A DNA stretch of 64,000 bases from an uncultured Actinomycetota bacterium. GTDB taxonomy: Bacteria; Actinomycetota; Humimicrobiia; Humimicrobiales; Humimicrobiaceae. A program made the position numbers and the translations under genes. The notes under the pieces were generated by a model. That model was given only the letters and a program-made list of their open reading frames with translations, did no database searches and was not told the DNA's origin. The stretch spans positions 11,071 to 75,070 of the forward strand of contig CAYPYW010000010.1 of NCBI GenBank assembly GCA_964415365.1, given 5' to 3'. This document shows, piece by piece, positions 2,289 through 13,220 of the stretch; the first letter of the stretch is position 1, and the number at the start of each line of letters is the position of its first letter.

Positions 2289-3490
2289 CAAAGAAAAAGG
2301 ATTTTATGTTTACTTCGGAATCAGTAACCGAAGGTCACCCGGATAAAATGGCTGATCAGATTTCTGATGCCATACTTGATGCTATGATAGCTGATGACCC
2401 CAAATGCAGGACCGCTATTGAAACTCTGCTTAAAACGGGGATTGTTATAGTGGCAGGTGAAGTTACTACTTCTACATATGTGGAAATACCTGATGTTGTA
2501 AGAGAGGTTGTTAAGAATATCGGATACACAAGGGCAAAATATGGTTTTGATTATGAGACCTGCGGCGTTATTACTTCTATTGGGAAACAGTCTCCCAATA
2601 TAGCCCGGGGTGTTAATAATGCTTATGAAGCCAGAGTGGGAAATGGATATGAGAATGAGTTCGATACCCAGGGTGCCGGGGATCAGGGAATGATGTTTGG
2701 TTATGCATGTAATGAAACCGAGGAACTGATGCCTCTTCCTATCCAGCTTGCTCACAGGCTGTCTCACCGCCTGTCCGAAGTCAGGAAAGCAGGGATTCTG
2801 CCATATCTGAGACCTGATGGCAAAACTCAGGTAACAGTAAGATATGAGAATGACAGGCCGGTTTCTGTTGAGACCGTTGTAATAGCCACCCAACATGCTC
2901 CTAATATTGATGTAGAATCTCAGATAGGACCGGATATGAGAGAATTTGTGATAAAACCAATTATTCCTGAACAATATCTAAGCAAGGATTTAAAGCTATT
3001 TGTTAATCCTACGGGGGAATTTACGATTGGCGGACCTATGGGTGATACAGGAGTTACCGGAAGGAAAATAATTATAGATACCTATGGCGGAATGGCAAGG
3101 CATGGAGGAGGCTGTTTTTCGGGAAAAGATCCTTCCAAGGTTGATAGGTCAGCTGCCTATGCAGTAAGGCATGTTGCCAAGAATCTGGTGGCAAGCGGTG
3201 CCGCTGATAAGGTGGAAATAGAGGTGGCTTATGCTATAGGTGTTTCACATCCGGTATCGGTTATGGTGGAAACATTCGGTACTGAGAAAGTGGATGTCAA
3301 AAAAATTGAAAAGGCGGTAAAGGAAGTATTTGACTTGAGGCCGGCAGCGATTATCAGGAATTTGAATCTGCTCAGGCCTATTTATAAAAAAACTGCGGCT
3401 TATGGCCATTTCGGAAGGCATGACCGGGATTTCACCTGGGAGAAGCTGGATAAAGTTGATGAAATCAAGAGTTCTCTGGACCTTAAATAA
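2285..3490 (+). CDS. metK: S-adenosylmethionine synthetase
   Basis: [25 protein letters not shown]; [19 protein letters not shown] motifs; 401 aa. Confidence 0.95.
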
Positions 3491-3504
3491 TTACTTTTGT
3501 TTAA

Positions 3505-5766
3505 ATGGTTGGAAATAACAAATATGCAGAGGTTTACGTAGATATAAAAGCCTTTGATATTGATCATGCTTTTGATTACAGAATACCCCCCAGTTTATCC
3601 TTGAATATTAATACCGGCAGAATTGTTAGGGTCCCTTTCAAAAATAGAATTGAAGTTGGTTATATTGTAAAAACCAAGAATAAGTCAGAACTAGAAGATA
3701 AGGAAATAAAAGATATTGCCGGAATAGTGGATGCAAAACCCGTCTTCGATCCCGGAAGATTGGAACTCATAAATTGGATCAGCCGGTATTATATCCAGCC
3801 TCTGGGGAGTGTAATTAAGTTTTTCCTCCCTCCCGGAGGAAAATACAAGCAGGCAATCGCAGATTCCAGAGTAAAATTAAAATTCAGGGATTATATAACC
3901 TTAAACAGGAATGAGTATAAGCTGGTAAAGGATAAGGTTAACTGGAAAAAAAATTATTCACAAAAAAAGGTAATTGATTATCTGATTTTACATGGAGAAG
4001 TTTTAAAAGAAAAACTGATAAAAGATACCGGCTCAAGCTACGCAGGTCTTACTGCTCTTGCAGATAAAAAAATTGTATCTGTAATTAAAAAGAGGCAGAA
4101 GCGGGATTTCAGGTATGATTACCAGCCTGATAAGAATTTAAAGAAAAAAAAGATAATCTTAAACTCCTATCAAAAAAATGCGCTGTCCAGTATAGAAAAT
4201 GCTATAGGTAAAAATATTTTTCATAAATTCCTGATTGAAGGTGTGACCGGCAGCGGAAAAACTGATATTTATATAGCCGCCTGCAGGGAAGTTCTGACTG
4301 GTAAAAAAAAAGCACTTGTTCTAACTCCTGAGATTTCCCTAACCCCCCAGCTGTTTTCGAGATTTGAATCCGAGTTTGGGTCCAGAGTGTGTGTGTATCA
4401 TTCCAATATGAGTGAAGCAGAAAGGTATGAAAGGTGGCTGGATATATGGAACGGTGAGTTTGATATAATAATAGGAACCAGATCTTCAATTTTTACTCCC
4501 CTGGACAACCTGGGCATAATAATAATGGATGAGGAGCATGACCCATCCTATAAAGAAGGAACCAGAGTCAGATATAATACCCAGGACGTAGCAATAAAAT
4601 TGGGGGAGATACTTGGAATACCGGTGGTCATGGGCAGTGCTACACCCAGTCTGGTTACCAGGTACAGGGCAGAAAACGAGGATAATTTTACCCTGCTTAA
4701 GATTCCGGTTAAAGCTCAAAGTAGCAGTTTATTAAAAATGGAAGTGATCGATCTTAAAAAAATAGACCGTTTAAAAGAGGATATAGTTATAACCGGTAAG
4801 TTATTTACTGCAATCAGAGAGGAATTGGAAAAAAGCAATAAGGTAATTATTTTTTTAAACAGAAGGGGCTATAGTAACTTTATAATATGCAATAAGTGTG
4901 GTGCTGTTCCCAAATGTCCTGCCTGTGACCTTTCCTATAATTATCATAGCGATCCCAAAAAACTGATATGCCACCACTGCGGCAGAGAGCAGGATTATAC
5001 CGGAAAATGTCCTGTTTGTGGTGCGGACAGTGTCTTTTTATATGGTACAGGAATTCAGAAGGTTCAGTCGAAACTTCAGATGAGATTCAAGAGTATCCCC
5101 ATACTCAGGATGGATTCCGATGTGACCGTAAAGAAGAAGTCACACCAGGAAATACTGGAAAAGTTCATTTCTCCCGGGGGATCGATTCTTATAGGTACCC
5201 AGATGATAGCCAAGGGACTTGATGTTGAGGATGTTACTCTGGTGGGAGTCATTAATTGCGATAGTATGTTGGGACTCCCTGATTATCATATGAATGAGAG
5301 AGTTTATCAGCTTATTACCCAGGTATCCGGAAGGGCTGGAAGAAAGAGAAAGAAAGGCAGGGTAATAATCCAGACCTACAATCCCGGAAGCAGGGTCATG
5401 AAAAACATACTTGCAAATGATTATGAATCATTTTACGGGCAGGAATTAGAAAACAGGAAAGAGCTCGACTATCCTCCTTTTTCCAACCTGGTAAATATTA
5501 TAATATCCGGCAAGGATGAGAATAGGGTGAAAAAAGATATAAAAGGACTATTTGAAAAAATAAGCGGAGCTGTTAAGATTGACAGCATACTGGGGCCGGC
5601 TCCTGCTCCTTTTCATAAGATAAATTTATTTTACAGATGGCATATAATAATAAAGTCTAAAAATGTAGATTTTTTGAATGAGGCACTGGCTAAAATATTA
5701 AAGAGGTTTAAAAAATTCGATGAAAATAAGATAATTGTTGATGTAGATCCGGTATGGATTTTGTAA
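3505..5766 (+). CDS. priA: primosomal protein N' (replication restart helicase)
   Basis: N-terminal YAEVYVDI...FDY.IP, Walker A GVTGSGKT, DEEH, Cys4 zinc-binding insert (CNKCG..CPAC..CHHCG..CPVCG); 753 aa. Confidence 0.9.
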   Translation: MVGNNKYAEVYVDIKAFDIDHAFDYRIPPSLSLNINTGRIVRVPFKNRIEVGYIVKTKNKSELEDKEIKDIAGIVDAKPVFDPGRLELINWISRYYIQPLGSVIKFFLPPGGKYKQAIADSRVKLKFRDYITLNRNEYKLVKDKVNWKKNYSQKKVIDYLILHGEVLKEKLIKDTGSSYAGLTALADKKIVSVIKKRQKRDFRYDYQPDKNLKKKKIILNSYQKNALSSIENAIGKNIFHKFLIEGVTGSGKTDIYIAACREVLTGKKKALVLTPEISLTPQLFSRFESEFGSRVCVYHSNMSEAERYERWLDIWNGEFDIIIGTRSSIFTPLDNLGIIIMDEEHDPSYKEGTRVRYNTQDVAIKLGEILGIPVVMGSATPSLVTRYRAENEDNFTLLKIPVKAQSSSLLKMEVIDLKKIDRLKEDIVITGKLFTAIREELEKSNKVIIFLNRRGYSNFIICNKCGAVPKCPACDLSYNYHSDPKKLICHHCGREQDYTGKCPVCGADSVFLYGTGIQKVQSKLQMRFKSIPILRMDSDVTVKKKSHQEILEKFISPGGSILIGTQMIAKGLDVEDVTLVGVINCDSMLGLPDYHMNERVYQLITQVSGRAGRKRKKGRVIIQTYNPGSRVMKNILANDYESFYGQELENRKELDYPPFSNLVNIIISGKDENRVKKDIKGLFEKISGAVKIDSILGPAPAPFHKINLFYRWHIIIKSKNVDFLNEALAKILKRFKKFDENKIIVDVDPVWIL

Positions 5767-5783
5767 ATTGGGGAAGGTAGGAA

Positions 5784-6281
5784 ATGGCAGTTAAAGAAAT
5801 AAGAAAGATCGGTGATCCGGTTTTAAGAGAAAAAAGTAAAGCAGTGGAAAAAATAGACGATAAGCTTGTTAGTCTGATTCAAGATATGACCGATACATTG
5901 AAAGAAGAAGGTGCAGCAGGTCTTGCTGCTCCGCAGATAGGGATAACAAGGAGAGTAATTGTTGTAAATTTTGGTGACAGTGTCAAGGCGTTTATAAATC
6001 CGGAAATCAAAGTTCTGAGCAGAAAAAAAATAGAAAGTAATGAAGGATGTCTGAGTGTCTATTCGATAAAAGATTTTTCTGTTAATAGATTTTCAAAAGT
6101 CAGAGTAAGGGCAAAAGATTCAAAAGGCAGTAATATCACAGTTGTGGCGGAAGATTTACTGGCAAGAATATTTCAGCATGAAATTGATCACCTTAATGGA
6201 ATATTGTACATAGATCGTCTTGAATGGAAATCAAGAAGAGAACTTCTTTCAAAGATTAATGATATCAAATCAAATGTTTAA
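5784..6281 (+). CDS. def: peptide deformylase
   Basis: GAAGLAAPQIG, EGCLS, QHEIDHLNG motifs. Confidence 0.9.
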   Translation: MAVKEIRKIGDPVLREKSKAVEKIDDKLVSLIQDMTDTLKEEGAAGLAAPQIGITRRVIVVNFGDSVKAFINPEIKVLSRKKIESNEGCLSVYSIKDFSVNRFSKVRVRAKDSKGSNITVVAEDLLARIFQHEIDHLNGILYIDRLEWKSRRELLSKINDIKSNV

Positions 6282-6296
6282 AATAAGGAGACTCGT

Positions 6297-7265
6297 TTGA
6301 GGATATTGTTTTTTGGCTCTTCCGAAATTTCAGTTCCATTCCTGGAAGAAATATATAAATCAAAACATGGCATATCTCTTGTTGTGGCTACTGTTGATAA
6401 GCCGGCAGGAAGGGGAAGAAAAACTTTACCTAATGTAGTAAAAAGCAAGGCTATTGAGTTGGGAATTGATTATATTCAGATTGAGAAGTTTGACAATATT
6501 TTTTTTGATAAGTTTACAAAATTAGGGTTTGACGGAATTGTAGTGGTTTCTTTCGGAAAGATATTTCCTGAAAAAATATTTAAATTGACATCTGCCCGGT
6601 GGTTAAATGTCCACCCTTCACTTCTGCCGCGGTATAGAGGTCCAACACCTGTTATAAGTACGCTCCTGAATGGTGATGAGGTAGGAGGGATCAGCATAAT
6701 GGATGTAGTGCCTGAGGTAGATGCAGGTGGTATATATGCTCAGGTGAAATTCGGTGTTGGAGAAGACGATAACCGTGACAGCCTGGAGAGAAAGATAATA
6801 GAATTTGGAAAATCCCTTCTGATTACGGTACTTGACCTTGTAGAGAGTGAGAGGATTAAGTCATATCCCCAGGATGAGGAAAGTGTGACTTATAGTCACA
6901 AAATTACAAAAGATGACCTGAAAATCAACTGGGGCAGCAGTGCGATGGAAATAGTTAATAAAATCAGAGCCTTCAGCTCAAGTCCAGGTGCCTATTTTCT
7001 GTGGAAGGATTCAAGAATTAAAATTCTTAAGGCAAGTGTCTTAGATAGAGCTATAACCAATGCCTGTCAGGATAAACTTAAAATTGATAAAAGTAAGAAG
7101 GATGGTTTTGTAGTTGAGGCTGATAAAAAAGCAGGTATTCTGGTTAAGTGTAATAAAGATGAAATAATAAAGATTGAGTTGCTCCAGCCTCAGGATAAAA
7201 AAACAATGTCTTCGGTGGATTTTATTAACGGATACGGACTTAAAGCTGGTGAAAGTTTTGAATGA
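6297..7265 (+). CDS. fmt: methionyl-tRNA formyltransferase
   Basis: TTG start with AGGAG RBS; HPSLLPRYRGPTP motif; def-fmt synteny. Confidence 0.9.
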   Translation: MRILFFGSSEISVPFLEEIYKSKHGISLVVATVDKPAGRGRKTLPNVVKSKAIELGIDYIQIEKFDNIFFDKFTKLGFDGIVVVSFGKIFPEKIFKLTSARWLNVHPSLLPRYRGPTPVISTLLNGDEVGGISIMDVVPEVDAGGIYAQVKFGVGEDDNRDSLERKIIEFGKSLLITVLDLVESERIKSYPQDEESVTYSHKITKDDLKINWGSSAMEIVNKIRAFSSSPGAYFLWKDSRIKILKASVLDRAITNACQDKLKIDKSKKDGFVVEADKKAGILVKCNKDEIIKIELLQPQDKKTMSSVDFINGYGLKAGESFE

Positions 7266-8805
7266 AAGAAAAATCAAAAAGAGATCCGGAATCAATCCAC
7301 GCAAAATTGCCCTTCTTATCTTAATCCAGTATTTTAAAAAGAGGGGATCCTTAAAAGATATAATAAATAGCTGCCTTAAGAATTATGAACTGTCAAAGCT
7401 CGACAGGCGTTTTATCTTCAATATAGCCAAGGGTACGGTAAGATATTACCAGAAAATTGATTTCATACTTTCTTTATTTTCAAATAAAGATATAAAAGAT
7501 ATTGATTTTGTGATTCTTAATATACTGCGCATGGGGATTTTTCAGTTGATTTATATGAGTAAAATTCCCGATTATTCAGCGGTTAATGAAAGTGTCCAGC
7601 TGGCAAAGAAAAATGCTGGCGTGTCTTCTTCCAAATTCGTGAATGCGATACTGCGTAAAATTAGTTCAATCCCGGACATGGATTCGTTTATAGAAGGGGA
7701 AATTAAAAGGGTGGCAAAGGACGAAACTGACAGAATCAGTATAAACTACTCTTATCCCGGATGGCTCATAAAGTACTGGCTCGACTGTTATGGAAAGGAA
7801 AAAACTGTTCTAATCTGCAGGTCGCTTAATGAAAACCCGCATACTTACCTGAGATTTAATAAAGATAAGATTGCAAGGGAAGAATTGTTTAAGGAGTTAG
7901 GCGTAAAATCAATTGATGGAAAATACTACAGTCAAAATGTTAAAGTCATACATGAATCTGCATCGGATGATATTGAAACAGAAGGTGATAATAATGAACA
8001 ATTTGTATCGAAGCATAGTATATTAGAAGATGTCATAGAAGTTTCCACCGTTCAGGATATTTCGGGAACTGATGTTTATAAGAAAGGCCTGGTTTCGATT
8101 CAGGATATCTCTTCTCAAATAGCTGTAAAGTATTTTCTAAATCCTCTCGGAAGTGAAAAAGTACTGGATGTATGCGCTGCACCCGGCGGAAAGACTGCAC
8201 ATATTGCCGAGCTTGTCGGGAATGATGGAGAGGTAATATCGGTTGATATAAACAGGAAGAGGCTAAAAATATTGCAGGATAATCTGAAAAGGTTAGACAT
8301 AAAGAATGTAAGAATTATAGAAGCTGATGCGGCCGGGCAGAATTTCCTGGAAAGAAGCGAAGGTGCTAAAAATAAAAGAAAACCTGATAGTTACACGGGA
8401 TATTTTGATAAAATTTTAATCGATGCTCCATGCAGCGCTTTTGGGACGATTTCCAAGAATCCGGATGCAAAGTATAGTAAAACAATGGATGATGTAATAC
8501 GCCTTTCTGAAATGTCTTACAGGATGATGGTAAATTGTGATACTTATCTAAAAGCTGGCGGAAAACTTGTTTTTTATACCTGCACACTTTCACCCACAGA
8601 AAATCAACAGGTGATAGGGAAGTTTTTGGAGGAATTTAAAGGTAAATATGTTATCGGGAAGCAGGTCATTTCTGATGAGCTGATATCCGTTTTAGAACAT
8701 AAAAAAATTATGTTAGGACCACGAGAAAAAACCTGCCTTGAAATTATGCCCTATTATTTTGAAAGTGAAGGCGGCTTCGTCTGCAGCCTGATAAAACGGT
8801 CATGA
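7258..8805 (+). CDS. rsmB: 16S rRNA (cytosine967-C5)-methyltransferase RsmB/Sun with N-terminal NusB-like domain
   Basis: NusB-like N-term (INPRKIALLILIQYF), SAM MTase motifs (DVCAAPGGKT, IDAPCS), PUA-like C-term. Six-frame ORF opens at 7174 and overlaps fmt; start assigned to TTG 7258 with GGTGA RBS 7 nt upstream (GTG 7249 is an alternative). Confidence 0.85.
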   Translation: MNERKIKKRSGINPRKIALLILIQYFKKRGSLKDIINSCLKNYELSKLDRRFIFNIAKGTVRYYQKIDFILSLFSNKDIKDIDFVILNILRMGIFQLIYMSKIPDYSAVNESVQLAKKNAGVSSSKFVNAILRKISSIPDMDSFIEGEIKRVAKDETDRISINYSYPGWLIKYWLDCYGKEKTVLICRSLNENPHTYLRFNKDKIAREELFKELGVKSIDGKYYSQNVKVIHESASDDIETEGDNNEQFVSKHSILEDVIEVSTVQDISGTDVYKKGLVSIQDISSQIAVKYFLNPLGSEKVLDVCAAPGGKTAHIAELVGNDGEVISVDINRKRLKILQDNLKRLDIKNVRIIEADAAGQNFLERSEGAKNKRKPDSYTGYFDKILIDAPCSAFGTISKNPDAKYSKTMDDVIRLSEMSYRMMVNCDTYLKAGGKLVFYTCTLSPTENQQVIGKFLEEFKGKYVIGKQVISDELISVLEHKKIMLGPREKTCLEIMPYYFESEGGFVCSLIKRS

Positions 8806-8868: not shown

Positions 8869-9097
8869 GGAAGCATCTAAAATTCCGTGATAGCGATAAA
8901 AGTAAAACTTTAAGGGCCAGGATGGGTTATTTCAAAAACACGCAAGCTTTTACCCAGCGAGAAAGAGCTTGCTCAGTTTCAGGCTTCGCTCTCCTCTTAG
9001 AAGAGGAACCATGCCCGCTTTGCCTTCAAATGGTTTTCTTAAGTAACCCGTCCTCGCCCATTAATTTATTTTTTATCACGAATTTTTAGATGCTACC
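8869..9097. mobile_element. MITE-like non-autonomous element (229 bp) with imperfect ~24-bp terminal inverted repeats and extensive internal hairpin potential
   Basis: 5' end GGAAGCATCTAAAATTCCGTGATA (8869-8892) matches the reverse complement of 3' end TATCACGAATTTTTAGATGCTACC (9074-9097) apart from 2 mismatches and 1 indel; flanked by a 9-bp direct repeat; no coding capacity; internal pairs (GGCCAGGATGGGTTA / TAACCCGTCCTCGCC, CCTCTT/AAGAGG). Confidence 0.45.
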
Positions 9098-9176: not shown

Positions 9177-9440
9177 ATGGATACAAAAAAAAGAACACAT
9201 GTCGTAGTTCCAGAAGAATTAGTGGAGGAAATAGACAGACTTTCGGGGAAAAGGAAGCGTAGCTGGTTTATAACTCAGGCTGTAAGAAAAGAGATACAGA
9301 GATTAAATTTCCTTGATGCAGTAAAGGAAACAGCAGGAACCTGGAATGATAAAGATCATCCTGAATTCAAAAAAGGAGTTGAAAGCTGGGTAAGACGTCT
9401 GAGGGATGAAGACAAAAAGAGATTGAAGGATATGTTGTAA
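9177..9440 (+). CDS. vapB: ribbon-helix-helix (CopG/VapB-type) antitoxin
   Basis: 87 aa; N-terminal RHH pattern THVVVPEELVEEIDRL...RSWFITQAVRKEI; stop overlaps toxin start (TAATGG). Confidence 0.75.
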   Translation: MDTKKRTHVVVPEELVEEIDRLSGKRKRSWFITQAVRKEIQRLNFLDAVKETAGTWNDKDHPEFKKGVESWVRRLRDEDKKRLKDML

Positions 9441-9823
9441 TGGCTGAATATCTACTGGATACAACAATAATAATTGAACATCTCCGTGGTAATACAAAAG
9501 TAAGTTCCTGTCTGGAAGAAATAGGAATTAAAGGTGACATTGCGGGATGCTGTTGTATAAATATTGCCGAAGTTTATACTGGGGTTAAGGAAAAGGAGAA
9601 AGAGAAAACAGACAGATTTATTGAAAGCCTTTATTACTTTGAAGTGACTAAAGAGGTTGCTAGATTGGCCGGGAAACTGAAGCAAAAGTATGCTGGGAAG
9701 GGTAAAACATTGTCAATCGCTGATGTAATTATTGCAGCTACAGCAATGGTGTATGGTTTAACATTGATTACGAAAAATGTAAAGCATTATCCTTTTCCAG
9801 AGCTAGAAATTAACGAAATCTAA
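9440..9823 (+). CDS. vapC: PIN-domain ribonuclease toxin VapC
   Basis: 127 aa; LLDTTIIIE (first acidic residue), IADVIIAATA, LITKNVKHY PIN motifs; 4-nt overlap with vapB. Confidence 0.8.
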   Translation: MAEYLLDTTIIIEHLRGNTKVSSCLEEIGIKGDIAGCCCINIAEVYTGVKEKEKEKTDRFIESLYYFEVTKEVARLAGKLKQKYAGKGKTLSIADVIIAATAMVYGLTLITKNVKHYPFPELEINEI

Positions 9824-9963
9824 CTGCATATCATTTTTATTATAAGATAACACATTTGTAATTATCTGGTTTTATTAAAATATGATATATTTAAGTTGTT
9901 AAGGTAGTTCACCAAGATCTTTATAGACGGAATACCACGGATTCTTAAAGAATTAAAATAAAT

Positions 9964-12900
9964 ATGGAAGAGTTAAACAATATTGTTGCTTATTGGTATG
10001 ATTGTATCAAGAGTGAAGATATTTTAGAGAAAGATATTTCTATAAATGTCAGGAGTAAAGCAGTTCTTTACCCTTTTGATAATGATCCATTCATTTTTGA
10101 TAAAAGAGAAAATTCAGTCTTGGTGTCCGGAGACGGAAAATTGACTACTTTTTCAGAATATATCAGCATACGAGATTACGAGCCATATTATGGATATCCA
10201 ATTCTGTTTTATTTTGACGATAACTCAAAAAAATACTTGGTTGCACCTCTTTTTATAATTAAGGTGAAGTTCGTTGAAAAGGATAAGGGGCTACATCTAC
10301 AAAAAGATGAACAAAATCCTACTTGTGGAATTCAAGCATTTAGCAGGCTTGGATTTCGCACCGAGGAAATTGCTGATATAAGTCAACCTCTAGAAAGGTT
10401 ATTTAGAAGTGAGTTTTCTAATAGTAAAAATTTAGCAGAAAAATGTTTAGAGGTTATTCAAAAGGAAGCTGAGCTACCAATTAATGAGCCTATAGATCCT
10501 AATAGGTTAACCAACAGGGAAAAGATTTCGAAGAATATGGCTTCAGGTTTGTATAATAAAAGTTTAGTCTTTGCTGGTGAAAATACTGCTTATAACATTA
10601 GCCTGCTCCAAGACTTGCTAGAATTGAAAGAAAAAAATGATTTAGACAAGACTGCTCTTTCATTTATCCTTGAAAAGATATCTTCAGTTAAAGGAGTTGA
10701 AAAAACACCAATTCTTCCTTTTCCTTCAAATGAGTATCAAGTAAAAGCCCTACAGAATATATTTCAAAATAAGTTATCTGTCATTACCGGTCCACCTGGT
10801 ACTGGAAAAAGCCAATACATTTCAAATCTGTTGATTAACCTTTTTCTTGAAGGAAAGTCAGTTCTCTTTGTTAGTCATACTAATCCGGCAGTTGATGTTG
10901 TAAATGAAAAAATAAATCAACAATTTCGAAACTTGATGCTTCGGACAGGTAGAAAAGAATTTCGGCAAGAACTTAAAGGAAGGTTTAACGAATTAATTTT
11001 GGAGTCAGAAAGAAAACCATTGGAACAGGGACAGATAGGTCAAATTCAATCTATGTGGCAAACGATCTTGCAATATCGAGAAAGCTTGTTACAGCTAGAC
11101 CAGCTAGAACAACGATTTGAGGACAGTTATCTACCTTACAGTAATAGAAAAACTCCTTTTTACGAAGGTTATAATTTAGAACAATCATTTGAAGAATTAT
11201 CCCCCAATTTGAGGAAATTGGAAGTTATTAAAGAAAGATTGGAACATCTTAGGAGTAAAATAGAGAATAAACAATTTTCTTTATTGGAGAGAATTGTTCT
11301 CTTCTTATTTCCACATTATATTGAGAACAAAAAGGAAAGATTATTTTATAATTTGAGTCGTATTCTACCACTTAGTACTCTTAGGATTCTCCAGAATTCT
11401 ACGAAGCCTGCTCAGATTAGAAATTGGAACGACCAAGGATGGTTAAGACTGTCAGAATACCTTGAACTGTTAAAATACTTTTTCAAATTTGAAACAATCA
11501 GGCAGGAAATAGAAACTTTTCAACCCAGGGCGATTATTGAACAAAAAATTAGGAAGCTAGAAAAGGATTTTTGCGATGTTTCAAAAAGGTTTGTAAAGGA
11601 CATTTACATACAAAGAATGCTTGGGAAAGGTGAAAATGTTGGAAGGGTAAATTCATTTTTGTATCAAGTAGATTCTATTAGACCAAATGATGATGGTATC
11701 GATAGCTATTTATTTAAGGAAGCTCTTGATGCTTTAAAAATATGGTCATGTACTTTGAAATCAGTCAGAAGAACGTTTCCTCTAAGTCCTGGCATCTTTG
11801 ATTATGTAATTTTTGATGAGGCTTCACAGGTTGATCTACCCTCAGCAGCACCAGCTCTTTATAGAGCAAAAAGAGCTATTGTGGTTGGTGACCCTATGCA
11901 ACTTACGCATGTTGCTGGGTTAACCAGGGACATAGATAAGGGATTGGCTCGGATCCATGGACTAACGGAAAAGAAGAATATCTACCCTTCAAAGATAAGA
12001 TATTGCGATATTCCCCTTTATAGATCTGCAGAGAATTCTCTAAGTCATAAGCCCATACTGCTAATTAATCATTATCGGTCAGAAGACCAAATTATTGCTT
12101 TATGTAATCAGGCTTTTTATGGGGGGCATTTAAAAATAATGACCACTCTTGATTACGCCCGATACCCTAGCAGTTTACCATTAGGTATTCACTGGATTAA
12201 TTGTGAAGGTGAAGTTTTTAAACATCCTGCAGGGAGCAGAATAAATCGCGCTGAGGTCTTATTGGTAAATAAGGTTTTCCAAGATGTATTACAAGAAATA
12301 TCAGGGACAGATCTAAGTATAGGTATTGTCACTCCCTACTCTCGTCAACAGGACGCAATATACGAAAGAATTTCCCAATCAACATCGGCAGAACTTCTTG
12401 AGAGACATAATGTAAGAATCCTTACCGCTCATAAATTTCAGGGGTCTGAAAAAGACATAATGATATTTTCTTTAGTTTTGGCATCCCGCGGAAATGGAAG
12501 TAGTGATCGATGGTATAATATTTACCCTCAAATTTTGAATGTAGCCTTATCGCGGGCGAAGTATCTTTTATATATTGTAGGAGATAGAAACTTTTGTCAC
12601 GAACATTCCTGTTATAAAGAGCAAGATTGTGTACTAAAGCGATTGGTTAAAACTTATGACGATATTAAGAAGCAGGAAAAAGCTGAGGAATATACATTGT
12701 TTGAAAAGTTTGACTCTCCGACTGAAAGATTTCTTTTTGAGAAATTACAGAAGATAGATTTTGGGCGTCTTAAGTATAAATTGATTCCCAAGTTGGTCGT
12801 TAAGAGATATACACTAGATTTCGCACTTCTAGGTAAGAAAAAGATAGATATTGAGTGTGATGGCTACCAGCATACAATTATCGAAGGTTTCCCGGTATTG

Positions 12901-13029
12901 GAGGATGTCGCAAGAGACTATTTTTTGAAAGAGGAAGGGTGGGAAGTTTTTAGATTTCCTAATCATAGAATTTTGTCTCAAACTGATATTGTGATCGAAG
13001 ATATTTTAAATTTGTTGAAGGAGCCATAA
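9964..13029 (+). CDS. large multidomain protein: N-terminal DUF4011-like region, Dna2/Upf1-family SF1 helicase (AAA_11/AAA_12) and C-terminal DUF559/Vsr-like (REase_MTES_1575-type) PD-(D/E)xK endonuclease; candidate single-gene defence protein
   Basis: Walker A VITGPPGTGKSQY; motif II VIFDEASQVDL; VVGDPMQL; motif V/VI ILTAHKFQGSEKDIMIFSLV and ALSRAKYLLYIVGD; C-term LDFAL...IDIECDGYQH...DVARDYFLKEEGWEVFRFPNH matches DUF559/Vsr-like pattern; no SD; AT-richer than neighbours (about 28% vs about 39% GC in hand-counted 120-nt samples). Confidence 0.8.
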   Translation: MEELNNIVAYWYDCIKSEDILEKDISINVRSKAVLYPFDNDPFIFDKRENSVLVSGDGKLTTFSEYISIRDYEPYYGYPILFYFDDNSKKYLVAPLFIIKVKFVEKDKGLHLQKDEQNPTCGIQAFSRLGFRTEEIADISQPLERLFRSEFSNSKNLAEKCLEVIQKEAELPINEPIDPNRLTNREKISKNMASGLYNKSLVFAGENTAYNISLLQDLLELKEKNDLDKTALSFILEKISSVKGVEKTPILPFPSNEYQVKALQNIFQNKLSVITGPPGTGKSQYISNLLINLFLEGKSVLFVSHTNPAVDVVNEKINQQFRNLMLRTGRKEFRQELKGRFNELILESERKPLEQGQIGQIQSMWQTILQYRESLLQLDQLEQRFEDSYLPYSNRKTPFYEGYNLEQSFEELSPNLRKLEVIKERLEHLRSKIENKQFSLLERIVLFLFPHYIENKKERLFYNLSRILPLSTLRILQNSTKPAQIRNWNDQGWLRLSEYLELLKYFFKFETIRQEIETFQPRAIIEQKIRKLEKDFCDVSKRFVKDIYIQRMLGKGENVGRVNSFLYQVDSIRPNDDGIDSYLFKEALDALKIWSCTLKSVRRTFPLSPGIFDYVIFDEASQVDLPSAAPALYRAKRAIVVGDPMQLTHVAGLTRDIDKGLARIHGLTEKKNIYPSKIRYCDIPLYRSAENSLSHKPILLINHYRSEDQIIALCNQAFYGGHLKIMTTLDYARYPSSLPLGIHWINCEGEVFKHPAGSRINRAEVLLVNKVFQDVLQEISGTDLSIGIVTPYSRQQDAIYERISQSTSAELLERHNVRILTAHKFQGSEKDIMIFSLVLASRGNGSSDRWYNIYPQILNVALSRAKYLLYIVGDRNFCHEHSCYKEQDCVLKRLVKTYDDIKKQEKAEEYTLFEKFDSPTERFLFEKLQKIDFGRLKYKLIPKLVVKRYTLDFALLGKKKIDIECDGYQHTIIEGFPVLEDVARDYFLKEEGWEVFRFPNHRILSQTDIVIEDILNLLKEP

Positions 13030-13083
13030 CCATGATACTTCATCTAACACAGCTAAAAGATTCGTGCCTTATGGTACTCACCC

Positions 13084-13113
13084 AAATTTTTGCTCCGCAA
13101 AAATTTATTTTTA
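13084..13113 (+). terminator. Rho-independent terminator downstream of helicase-nuclease gene
   Basis: Perfect 10-bp stem AAATTTTTGC / GCAAAAATTT with 3-nt loop TCC, followed by ATTTTTA. Confidence 0.5.
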
Positions 13114-13220
13114 TATAATAAGTAAAAACATGAATGAATTGTATTCCAAAAAAGTGGAAAAGGAAGACATTGTTATTTTAACTGAGTATCGTTTCAAAAT
13201 GTTTGATGAAATATTTTTAC

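Follow-up and report, generated by a model that had tools for sequence, protein, structure and literature searches.

Single-gene systems in which a helicase is joined to a Vsr nuclease are already known. Hhe (HheA), in which DUF4011, a superfamily 1 (SF1) helicase and a Vsr endonuclease are united in one polypeptide, has been validated as an anti-phage gene: E. coli Hhe protects against lambda, T3, T7 and PhiV-1, and this activity is abolished in the nuclease mutant E1731A (Gao et al. 2020). Large proteins combining an SF1 helicase and a Vsr nuclease with the further domains HEPN, transglutaminase and wHTH (winged helix-turn-helix) were predicted to be modification-independent restriction proteins (Anantharaman et al. 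2013). What is new here is a compact version. In a 64,000-nucleotide stretch of contig CAYPYW010000010.1 from an uncultured Actinomycetota bacterium (hereafter the window), an uninterrupted 3066-nt open reading frame (ORF) with an ATG start (9964..13029, + strand) encodes a 1021-aa protein made of an N-terminal domain, an SF1B helicase and a C-terminal DUF559/Vsr-like nuclease. The original prediction for this DNA had proposed the same three-part architecture, which Pfam and the family alignment bear out; its statement that the architecture has no experimentally assigned function does not hold, considering that Hhe is a validated defence gene with helicase and Vsr nuclease.

We propose, with moderate confidence, that the gene encodes a free-standing, horizontally acquired Hhe-like helicase-nuclease whose most likely role is single-protein, modification-independent defence against invading DNA. 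This reading is suggested by the architecture with its invariant catalytic motifs and by the Hhe precedent with the same domain order. It is also suggested by the closest profile matches, which are all to defence models (MkoC, MkoA, PDC-S37, Hhe and ProA), and by the accessory nature of a recently inserted gene in an interval of variable cargo, whose family has spread horizontally. Further support comes from the swapping of effectors, an adjoining XRE-family gene in one subclade and some defence and mobile-element neighbours.

Architecture and conserved residues of the helicase-nuclease

The SF1B (Upf1/Dna2-like) helicase core spans residues 251-880 (10714..12603, + strand). Pfam recognizes AAA_11 (E 4e-22) in residues 255-443 and one further stretch, and AAA_12 (E 5.7e-29) in residues 691-875. 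The landmarks on the + strand are the Q-motif NEYQ (residues 256-259), the Walker A motif GPPGTGKS (nt 10789-10812, containing K282), motif II DEASQ (nt 11815-11829), motif III VVGDPMQL, motif V TAHKFQGSEKD and motif VI ALSRA. In an alignment of 20 family members, which is the basis for invariance throughout, motifs Q, I, Ia, II, III, IV, V and VI are all intact and invariant, including residues G276-S283 (Walker A), D618-Q622, G642/D643/P644/Q646, T821-E829 and S863-A865. The complete SF1B core had been predicted from the ORF and is present exactly as described, with every quoted motif invariant. By sequence, the nearest solved structures for the motor are UPF1/NAM7 (E 2e-20), Sen1, Dna2 and IGHMBP2, with E-values ranging from 2e-20 to 4e-9.

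The C-terminal DUF559/Vsr-like PD-(D/E)xK nuclease domain covers residues 919-1018 (12718..13017, + strand). Pfam assigns DUF559 (PF04480) to these residues with an E-value of 5.6e-13 and 49.2 bits against a cut-off of 20.6, and a match to MTES_1575 falls below the Pfam cut-off. The last ~100 residues align to the DUF559 'endonuclease-like protein' of Protein Data Bank (PDB) entry 3HRL (E 3.4e-8) with the pattern D...ExDG..H...RF retained, and the fuller DUF559 signature D...(V/I)ExDG..H...R..L...G..V.RF is conserved in the domain. Nine residues are invariant in the family (D952, E964, D966, G967, H970, R984, D985, W993 and R997), and D952, E964, D966 and H970 are the candidate catalytic residues. 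Consistent with the earlier description, the nuclease is intact, scoring above the Pfam cut-off with its putative catalytic residues conserved.

Between motifs Ia and II, in domain 1A, the alignment and the structure model place an all-helical, coiled-coil-like insertion of ~260 aa (10996..11778, + strand), which is ~90 aa longer in the 1012-1021-aa subclade than in the ~925-aa class (alignment columns 420-645). The full-length AlphaFold2 model, built from the 20-sequence alignment, reached a mean predicted local distance difference test score (pLDDT) of 61 and a predicted template modelling score (pTM) of 0.38, and was used for the helical insertion only; in this otherwise poor model, long helices are predicted at residues 358-604 with pLDDT 75-90.

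From its sequence, the 1021-aa protein looks enzymatically competent. An inactive relic in the window genome would agree with the replacement of E308, at least 90% conserved beside motif Ia, by proline, and with a degenerate motif resembling a ribosome-binding site (RBS) upstream of the gene (AAAGAATT versus AAAGGATT). Such a relic is nevertheless hardly credible, since the 3066-nt ORF is uninterrupted, all catalytic motifs are intact, and the five deviations of the window copy from positions conserved in at least 90% of the family are typical, other members having one to eight.

The N-terminal domain (residues 1-250; 9964..10713, + strand) is family-specific, and it received no assignment in Pfam, NCBIfam or PADLOC. 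Its predicted fold, a long three-stranded β-hairpin sheet with helices, is confidently modelled, and no PDB neighbour of the model was found. Conserved positions include Y10/C14/E18, Y76-G77-Y78-P79, P95-L96-F97, N198 and L214/L218/L221. Among 1.84 billion cluster representatives, a profile built from residues 1-250 retrieved only 101 clusters at E<=0.001. The domain content of 31 more distant, mostly full-length matches reveals the company that the N-terminal domain keeps: AAA_11 was detected in 30 and AAA_12 in 29 of them, MTES_1575 in 22 and DUF559 in 20. One protein (P0151, 1067 aa) carries a Schlafen AlbA_2 domain (SLFN_AlbA_2, residues 919-1051) instead of the Vsr-like nuclease, and another with the same N-terminal domain and helicase carries a caspase (Peptidase_C14) in its place. 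This demonstrates that the N-terminal domain is specific to this helicase chassis, being almost always joined to such a core, and that the C-terminal effector can be swapped on one N-domain/helicase chassis.

The segment KKYLVAPLFIIKVKF had been suggested to correspond to the DUF4011 region. Pfam does not detect DUF4011 (PF13195) in the window protein at E<=1, and matches it in only one of 52 family N-terminal domains, at noise level (E 0.013). As a comparison set, we took two annotated plasmid DUF4011 helicase-nucleases and then their homologues, yielding a 45-sequence alignment. Using hhalign, the N-domain profile matched this alignment weakly (60% probability, P 8.8e-5, 102 aligned columns) and the family hairpin VAPLFIIKVKF was superposed on the DUF4011 hairpin APLLLxPVxLxR; two single-sequence comparisons with DUF4011 proteins aligned the same APLF hairpin motif. 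The suggested correspondence thus finds a weak but coherent match on exactly the hairpin named, although Pfam does not recognize it. Judged from these alignments, remote homology between the N-terminal domain and DUF4011 is probable but unproven. We propose that the domain may act as a sensor or regulatory module that is remotely DUF4011-like; with a confidently predicted fold that lacks a solved relative, it may define a sensing module distantly common with DUF4011.

Insertion at the rsmB-rpmB locus

Scanning metagenomes with the neighbouring DAK2-domain protein retrieved 29 loci of related organisms at 60-82% identity (retrieved loci are labelled by L-numbers, L077-L104 holding the relatives at the rsmB-rpmB locus). 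The conserved gene string across these loci is priA-def-fmt-rsmB-[vapBC]-[GNAT]-rpmB-DAK2-rsmD-coaD, and the helicase-nuclease gene is absent from all of the ~20 relative loci that span the interval. As the gene is missing at the same locus in ~20 syntenic relatives, it is not a housekeeping orthologue, and we conclude that it is a recent, horizontally acquired insertion in the window genome. The original prediction had argued for horizontal acquisition and had set conservation at this locus beforehand as the check for a housekeeping orthologue; the relatives confirm the former and show no such conservation. Two of its supporting arguments are weak. The gene had been called much AT-richer than its surroundings, and its GC content is indeed lower, but only slightly, at 0.346 compared with 0.364 in the remainder of the window; a Shine-Dalgarno sequence is absent as stated, but this also applies to 28 of the 46 large ORFs of the window.

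The same absence bears on a possible accessory role of the protein in DNA repair or recombination, for example in Dna2/AddAB-like end processing or in helicase-assisted very-short-patch repair. Relatives are annotated by the Joint Genome Institute as 'very-short-patch-repair endonuclease', and the helicase-plus-nuclease logic is common with Dna2. Set against this, the gene is not retained in any of the ~20 syntenic relatives, its distribution is patchy and horizontally transferred, and it falls below the cut-off of every housekeeping model (IGHMBP2, 97.8 bits against 348.9; RecD2, 46.8 against 500; RecD, 34.9 against 310). While vsr is normally accompanied by dcm, no cytosine methyltransferase partner was found. 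We therefore regard a repair function as very unlikely.

Comparison with gene-less relatives further allowed us to delimit the insertion. On the left, nucleotide homology to the gene-less loci L081 and L082 ends at ~9911; on the right, native homology resumes at ~13125, within what is left of the 5' part of a GNAT acetyltransferase gene. Because the homology to relatives breaks there and the flanks are kept with homologues in unrelated hosts, the mobile unit is ~9912-13107 (~3.2 kb) and consists of a 52-nt leader, the ORF and a 3' terminator region. The 5' leader (9912..9963, + strand) is defined by the homology break and by a motif common to L007, L008, L010, L011 and L001. It ends in TTAAAGAATTAAAATAAAT, the local form of a conserved motif (consensus AAAGGATTGAAAT) that precedes close homologues in unrelated hosts; this weak RBS-like element lies 8-10 nt before the ATG, within ~25 nt ahead of the start.

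The conserved 3' region (13030..13107, + strand) travels with the gene, as seen from its alignment to homologue flanks. Directly after the homologue in L010, a Ratteibacteria metagenome-assembled genome (MAG), 53 nt are 90.6% identical to this region; 25 nt are 92% identical in L007, and L004 and L011 also align. The region ends in an AT-rich hairpin followed by a T-run at ~13085-13107, AAATTTTTGC-TCC-GCAAAAATTT, which is probably the cassette's own terminator; this hairpin, the second of the region, keeps its pairing through compensatory changes on both sides. A likeness of the 3' flank to the gene-less locus L078 was not confirmed by blastn-short and was dropped. We found no recombinase, integrase or transposase gene for the cassette, and a search of its ends for terminal inverted repeats or a target-site duplication returned only AT-rich chance matches.

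The original prediction had placed the gene in an island with vapBC and a miniature inverted-repeat transposable element (MITE), which is misleading. The toxin-antitoxin genes vapB (9177-9440) and vapC (9440-9823), together 9177..9823 on the + strand, lie outside the cassette and occur at the same site, with 74-94% amino acid identity, in eight loci that hold no helicase gene (L077, L081-L084, L097, L101 and L104). They are therefore locus residents and were not co-acquired. The MITE, for its part, is single-copy: the gap between rsmB and vapB contains a ~229-bp element (8869-9097) with 37-nt inverted ends matching at 76%, and since the corresponding spacer of L077 and L101 measures only ~100 bp, the element is itself an insertion; neither the window nor any retrieved locus yielded a second copy, leaving its designation as a MITE unproven.

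Downstream of the cassette lies a 5' remnant of the GNAT acetyltransferase gene of ~28 codons (13130..13216, + strand), identified by blastn to L083, L104, L081 and L078-L080 (match 13123/13130-13216). The GNAT gene, which sits in the gap between vapC and rpmB, is complete in L083 (1004-1476) and L104 (378-850); it is cut differently in L077 and L101, pointing to independent decay at this spot. Other cargo at the rsmB-rpmB interval includes a 342-aa ORF in L090 (5585-6613), ORFs of 261 and 143 aa in L097 (8160-9493) and a fragment resembling an S-adenosylmethionine-dependent methyltransferase in L081 (2820-3113) and L082, and vapBC is missing from most other relatives. The interval thus behaves as a variable spot.

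Spread and neighbourhoods of the family

A word-indexed cluster search returned 581 clusters at E<=1e-10, the best 120 of them at 53-84% identity. Relatives at 60-84% identity span more than 20 lineages. Within species-representative genomes, identities of 52-81%, mostly 59-81%, were recorded for relatives in Pirellulales and other Planctomycetota, Atribacterota, Ratteibacteria, Aminicenantales (Aminicenantes), Aerophobetes, Spirochaetota, Gammaproteobacteria, Thermoflavifilum (Bacteroidota), Nitrospinota, Nitrospirae, Syntrophaceae, many members of the candidate phyla radiation (CPR/Patescibacteria) and one archaeal Methanofastidiosum MAG. Regardless of host, the gene has a GC content of ~33-38%, and among the 24 loci whose flanks reach 1 kb or more, it exceeds those flanks in AT content in 22 (GC in Thermoflavifilum, 0.334 compared to 0.501). 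Together, these data demonstrate that the family has moved promiscuously between lineages. Homologues often lie on contigs that barely exceed the gene, but this was rejected as a sign of mobility, as the contig sizes of the collection give the same pattern.

Two copies are visibly decaying. In L010 (979-1962), the homologue is split after residue 235 by a 984-nt in-frame insertion ending in a stop; residues 233-235 occur twice at this junction, so that the insert resembles an element that duplicated a short target. In the copy of the Methanofastidiosum MAG (L008), the reading frame shifts between residues 212 and 230.

Such a pattern of spread raises the possibility of a selfish, self-propagating cassette that mainly promotes its own transmission or persistence, whether by homing-like or break-induced insertion or by post-segregational killing of the kind known from restriction-modification systems, with any defence as a by-product. 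The boundaries of the unit are tight, and the 52-nt leader, the ORF and the ~80-nt 3' region travel together between phyla with neither an integrase or transposase nor terminal repeats or target duplications detected. The gene encodes its own nuclease and motor, stands alone between housekeeping genes in most long contigs, and retains 60-84% identity between phyla, one archaeal MAG included, with a low GC content whatever the host. However, we found no pairs of empty and filled sites with a defined target sequence, the insertion sites vary between genomes and have no common motif, and no antitoxin or methylase partner is present that could make the gene addictive. Free-standing homing genes are normally small and reside in phages, introns or inteins, and the decaying copies in L008 and L010 likewise speak against self-propagation. 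We consider a selfish cassette unlikely. A related and bolder idea is that the family represents an undescribed autonomous mobile unit, a 'homing' helicase-nuclease whose motor and nuclease make or exploit DNA breaks for recombinase-free insertion of the bare ORF, along with its short leader and terminator, between housekeeping genes, crossing phyla and possibly domains whether or not it defends its host; this, too, we regard as rather improbable.

For the preferred defence reading, the gene neighbourhoods, which are mixed, offer some support. In the ~925-aa subclade, no more than ~10 nt separate the start codon of the helicase-nuclease from the end of an XRE-family helix-turn-helix (HTH) gene of 64-72 aa. 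It is intact in five loci (L017, 9784-9978; L019, 154-381; L022, 166-387; L018, 217-441; L020, 270-470), where its product has the sequence ...IETLKKIAKGLNVSVDDLIK, and persists as frameshifted remnants in four others (L021, L023, L028 and L030); a rescan for short ORFs did not find it upstream in the subclade of the window protein. The XRE gene may be an expression controller. By analogy with the controller proteins of restriction systems, its presence suggests that expression must be restrained. In addition, among 150 neighbour ORFs from 24 loci, matches to defence models were found for PDC-S01 (three), SoFic (two), AriA (two), AbiEii, RT_VI and HEC-06, and two of the ORFs are integrases.

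Regarding the wider window, all 46 large ORFs (at least 150 aa) in 1-64000 are on the + strand, GC skew is positive throughout the profiled part (1-25000) and the cumulative skew rises steadily. This suggests that the 64 kb lie on one replichore with extreme gene co-orientation. Rfam detected no family at threshold over the whole window, tRNA and rRNA included.

A proposed defence role and comparison with known systems

In the proposed defence, the N-terminal domain, possibly together with the coiled-coil insertion in 1A, would sense a feature of foreign or replicating DNA or hold the enzyme in an auto-inhibited state. The motor would then load on a 5' single-stranded tail or a fork and move by ATP-driven 5'->3' translocation, a direction known for Upf1, Dna2 and RecD2. 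Translocation would carry the Vsr-like nuclease along the DNA, where it would nick or cut and thereby destroy the invader. Expression would be low or controlled, and probably restrained, given that one subclade has an XRE-type repressor gene directly upstream.

Several observations weigh against a defence function. No conserved partner gene of at least 70 aa was found in 25 loci, and most long contigs show the gene alone among housekeeping genes, such as pheST/mutS, sdh/der and gatCAB/rpmB. The 813 records returned by a tblastn search of PLSDB plasmids all stay under 60% identity and fall short of 80% query coverage, and IMG/VR viral contigs contain only relatives of 25-30% identity over most of the protein. 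With 83.4 bits, the protein lies far below the cut-off of 2000 of the curated Hhe model NF042953, and with 131 bits far below the cut-off of 1500 of the ProA model. There is also no indication of a means to spare self DNA. Furthermore, Upf1-like motors also act on RNA, and the substrate could be RNA.

This last point leads to a variant in which the protein is a Upf1/Mokosh-like enzyme of defence or surveillance aimed at RNA: its motor would follow foreign transcripts or RNA-DNA hybrids rather than DNA, with the hybrid or DNA close by as the target of the nuclease. The closest relatives of the motor include the RNA helicases UPF1/NAM7 (E 2e-20), Sen1 and IGHMBP2, and the best defence profiles for the helicase core, as scored with PADLOC, are those of the Mokosh helicases MkoC (E 3e-55) and MkoA (E 3e-53). 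Yet the Vsr/DUF559 domain has a DNA endonuclease fold, the DNA enzyme Dna2 is matched equally well over the same region, and Pfam found neither a PLD nor an RNase domain. An RNA-directed function therefore appears quite improbable, and defence against invading DNA is retained as the preferred reading.

If the family defends cells, the size of the smallest known Hhe-type helicase-Vsr nuclease would be roughly halved, and proteins of 925-1021 aa would offer a tractable means to study the sensing and destruction of foreign nucleic acids; we found no paper on that. The family is common in uncultivated lineages, including CPR bacteria with their small genomes and few known defences. As it lies far below the curated Hhe and ProA thresholds, with partial PADLOC matches only, adding it could change defence inventories of these groups. 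Moreover, a naked 3.2-kb cassette with up to ~80% protein identity between phyla would be a clean case for the travel of a single defence gene. The family is unusual in its unsolved N-domain fold, in crossing phyla as a naked cassette and in falling far short of the curated thresholds of every named defence family.

Among the described systems with a Mokosh-like helicase, the original prediction had pointed to a parallel with type II Mokosh and Nhi, which stands in part. Type II Mokosh (MkoC) is similarly a single polypeptide with helicase and nuclease, and MkoC and MkoA are the best-matching defence profiles for the helicase, the best-scoring stretch for MkoC being residues 606-903. However, the Mokosh nuclease is a PLD, which Pfam does not detect in the window protein at E<=1, and domain order and N-terminal regions differ. 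Nhi gave no PADLOC match at E<=0.1. With Upf1/Dna2-type SF1B helicases the protein has in common the motor family and the motif set, with a likely 5'->3' polarity, and with the fusions Dna2 and Nhi the idea of a nuclease riding on the motor; in Dna2 and Nhi, by contrast, the nuclease is N-terminal and of another family, whereas it is C-terminal here.

The PADLOC candidate PDC-S37 matches residues 612-972 (E 1.6e-37), from helicase 2A into the nuclease, so that the junction is common to both; PDC-S37 is a computational candidate, and only positions 938-1293 of its 1550-position model match. ProA/DUF3320-type proteins (NF058533; MTES_1575-type) likewise combine an SF1 helicase with a Vsr-type nuclease, and the helicase 2A region matches, but they are ~1900 aa long and contain DUF3320/wHTH and other domains, none of which are present in the window protein. 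Literature searches on PDC-S37, ProA and DUF559-helicase defence returned nothing specific. As a side observation, Sphingobium plasmid p1 (L006), a conjugative plasmid, encodes a 1937-aa ProA/Hhe-like helicase-MTES_1575-DUF3320 protein (2591-8404) directly downstream of a gene for a 'BPTD_3080 family restriction endonuclease' (1-2463); the pair may be a two-gene defence locus.

Hhe (NCBIfam NF042953, 'DUF4011 domain-containing anti-phage protein Hhe'; PADLOC PDLC02194), annotated in genomes as a 'DUF4011 domain-containing protein', is likewise a single gene with the same domain order: the N-terminal region, DUF4011 in Hhe and possibly DUF4011-like here, precedes an SF1 helicase of AAA_11/AAA_12 type, and a Vsr-family nuclease forms the C-terminus; our literature search found no mechanistic study of it. 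In the window protein, too, the SF1 helicase is followed by a Vsr-family nuclease with the putative catalytic acidic residues. In contrast to Hhe, which has ~1800-1900 aa, it comprises only 1021 aa, has a divergent N-terminal domain, a DUF559- rather than MTES_1575-type nuclease and the ~260-aa helical insertion in 1A, and lacks DUF3320/wHTH. The PADLOC match to Hhe (E 3.5e-16, rounded E 4e-16) has its best-scoring stretch only at residues 257-319, the Walker A region. The protein falls outside every named defence system by membership tests (Hhe, ProA, Mokosh and Nhi) and hence outside the curated Hhe family. Considering its domain content and order, the most fitting reading is a compact member of the wider Hhe-like class, a 'mini-Hhe' of about half the size of Hhe.

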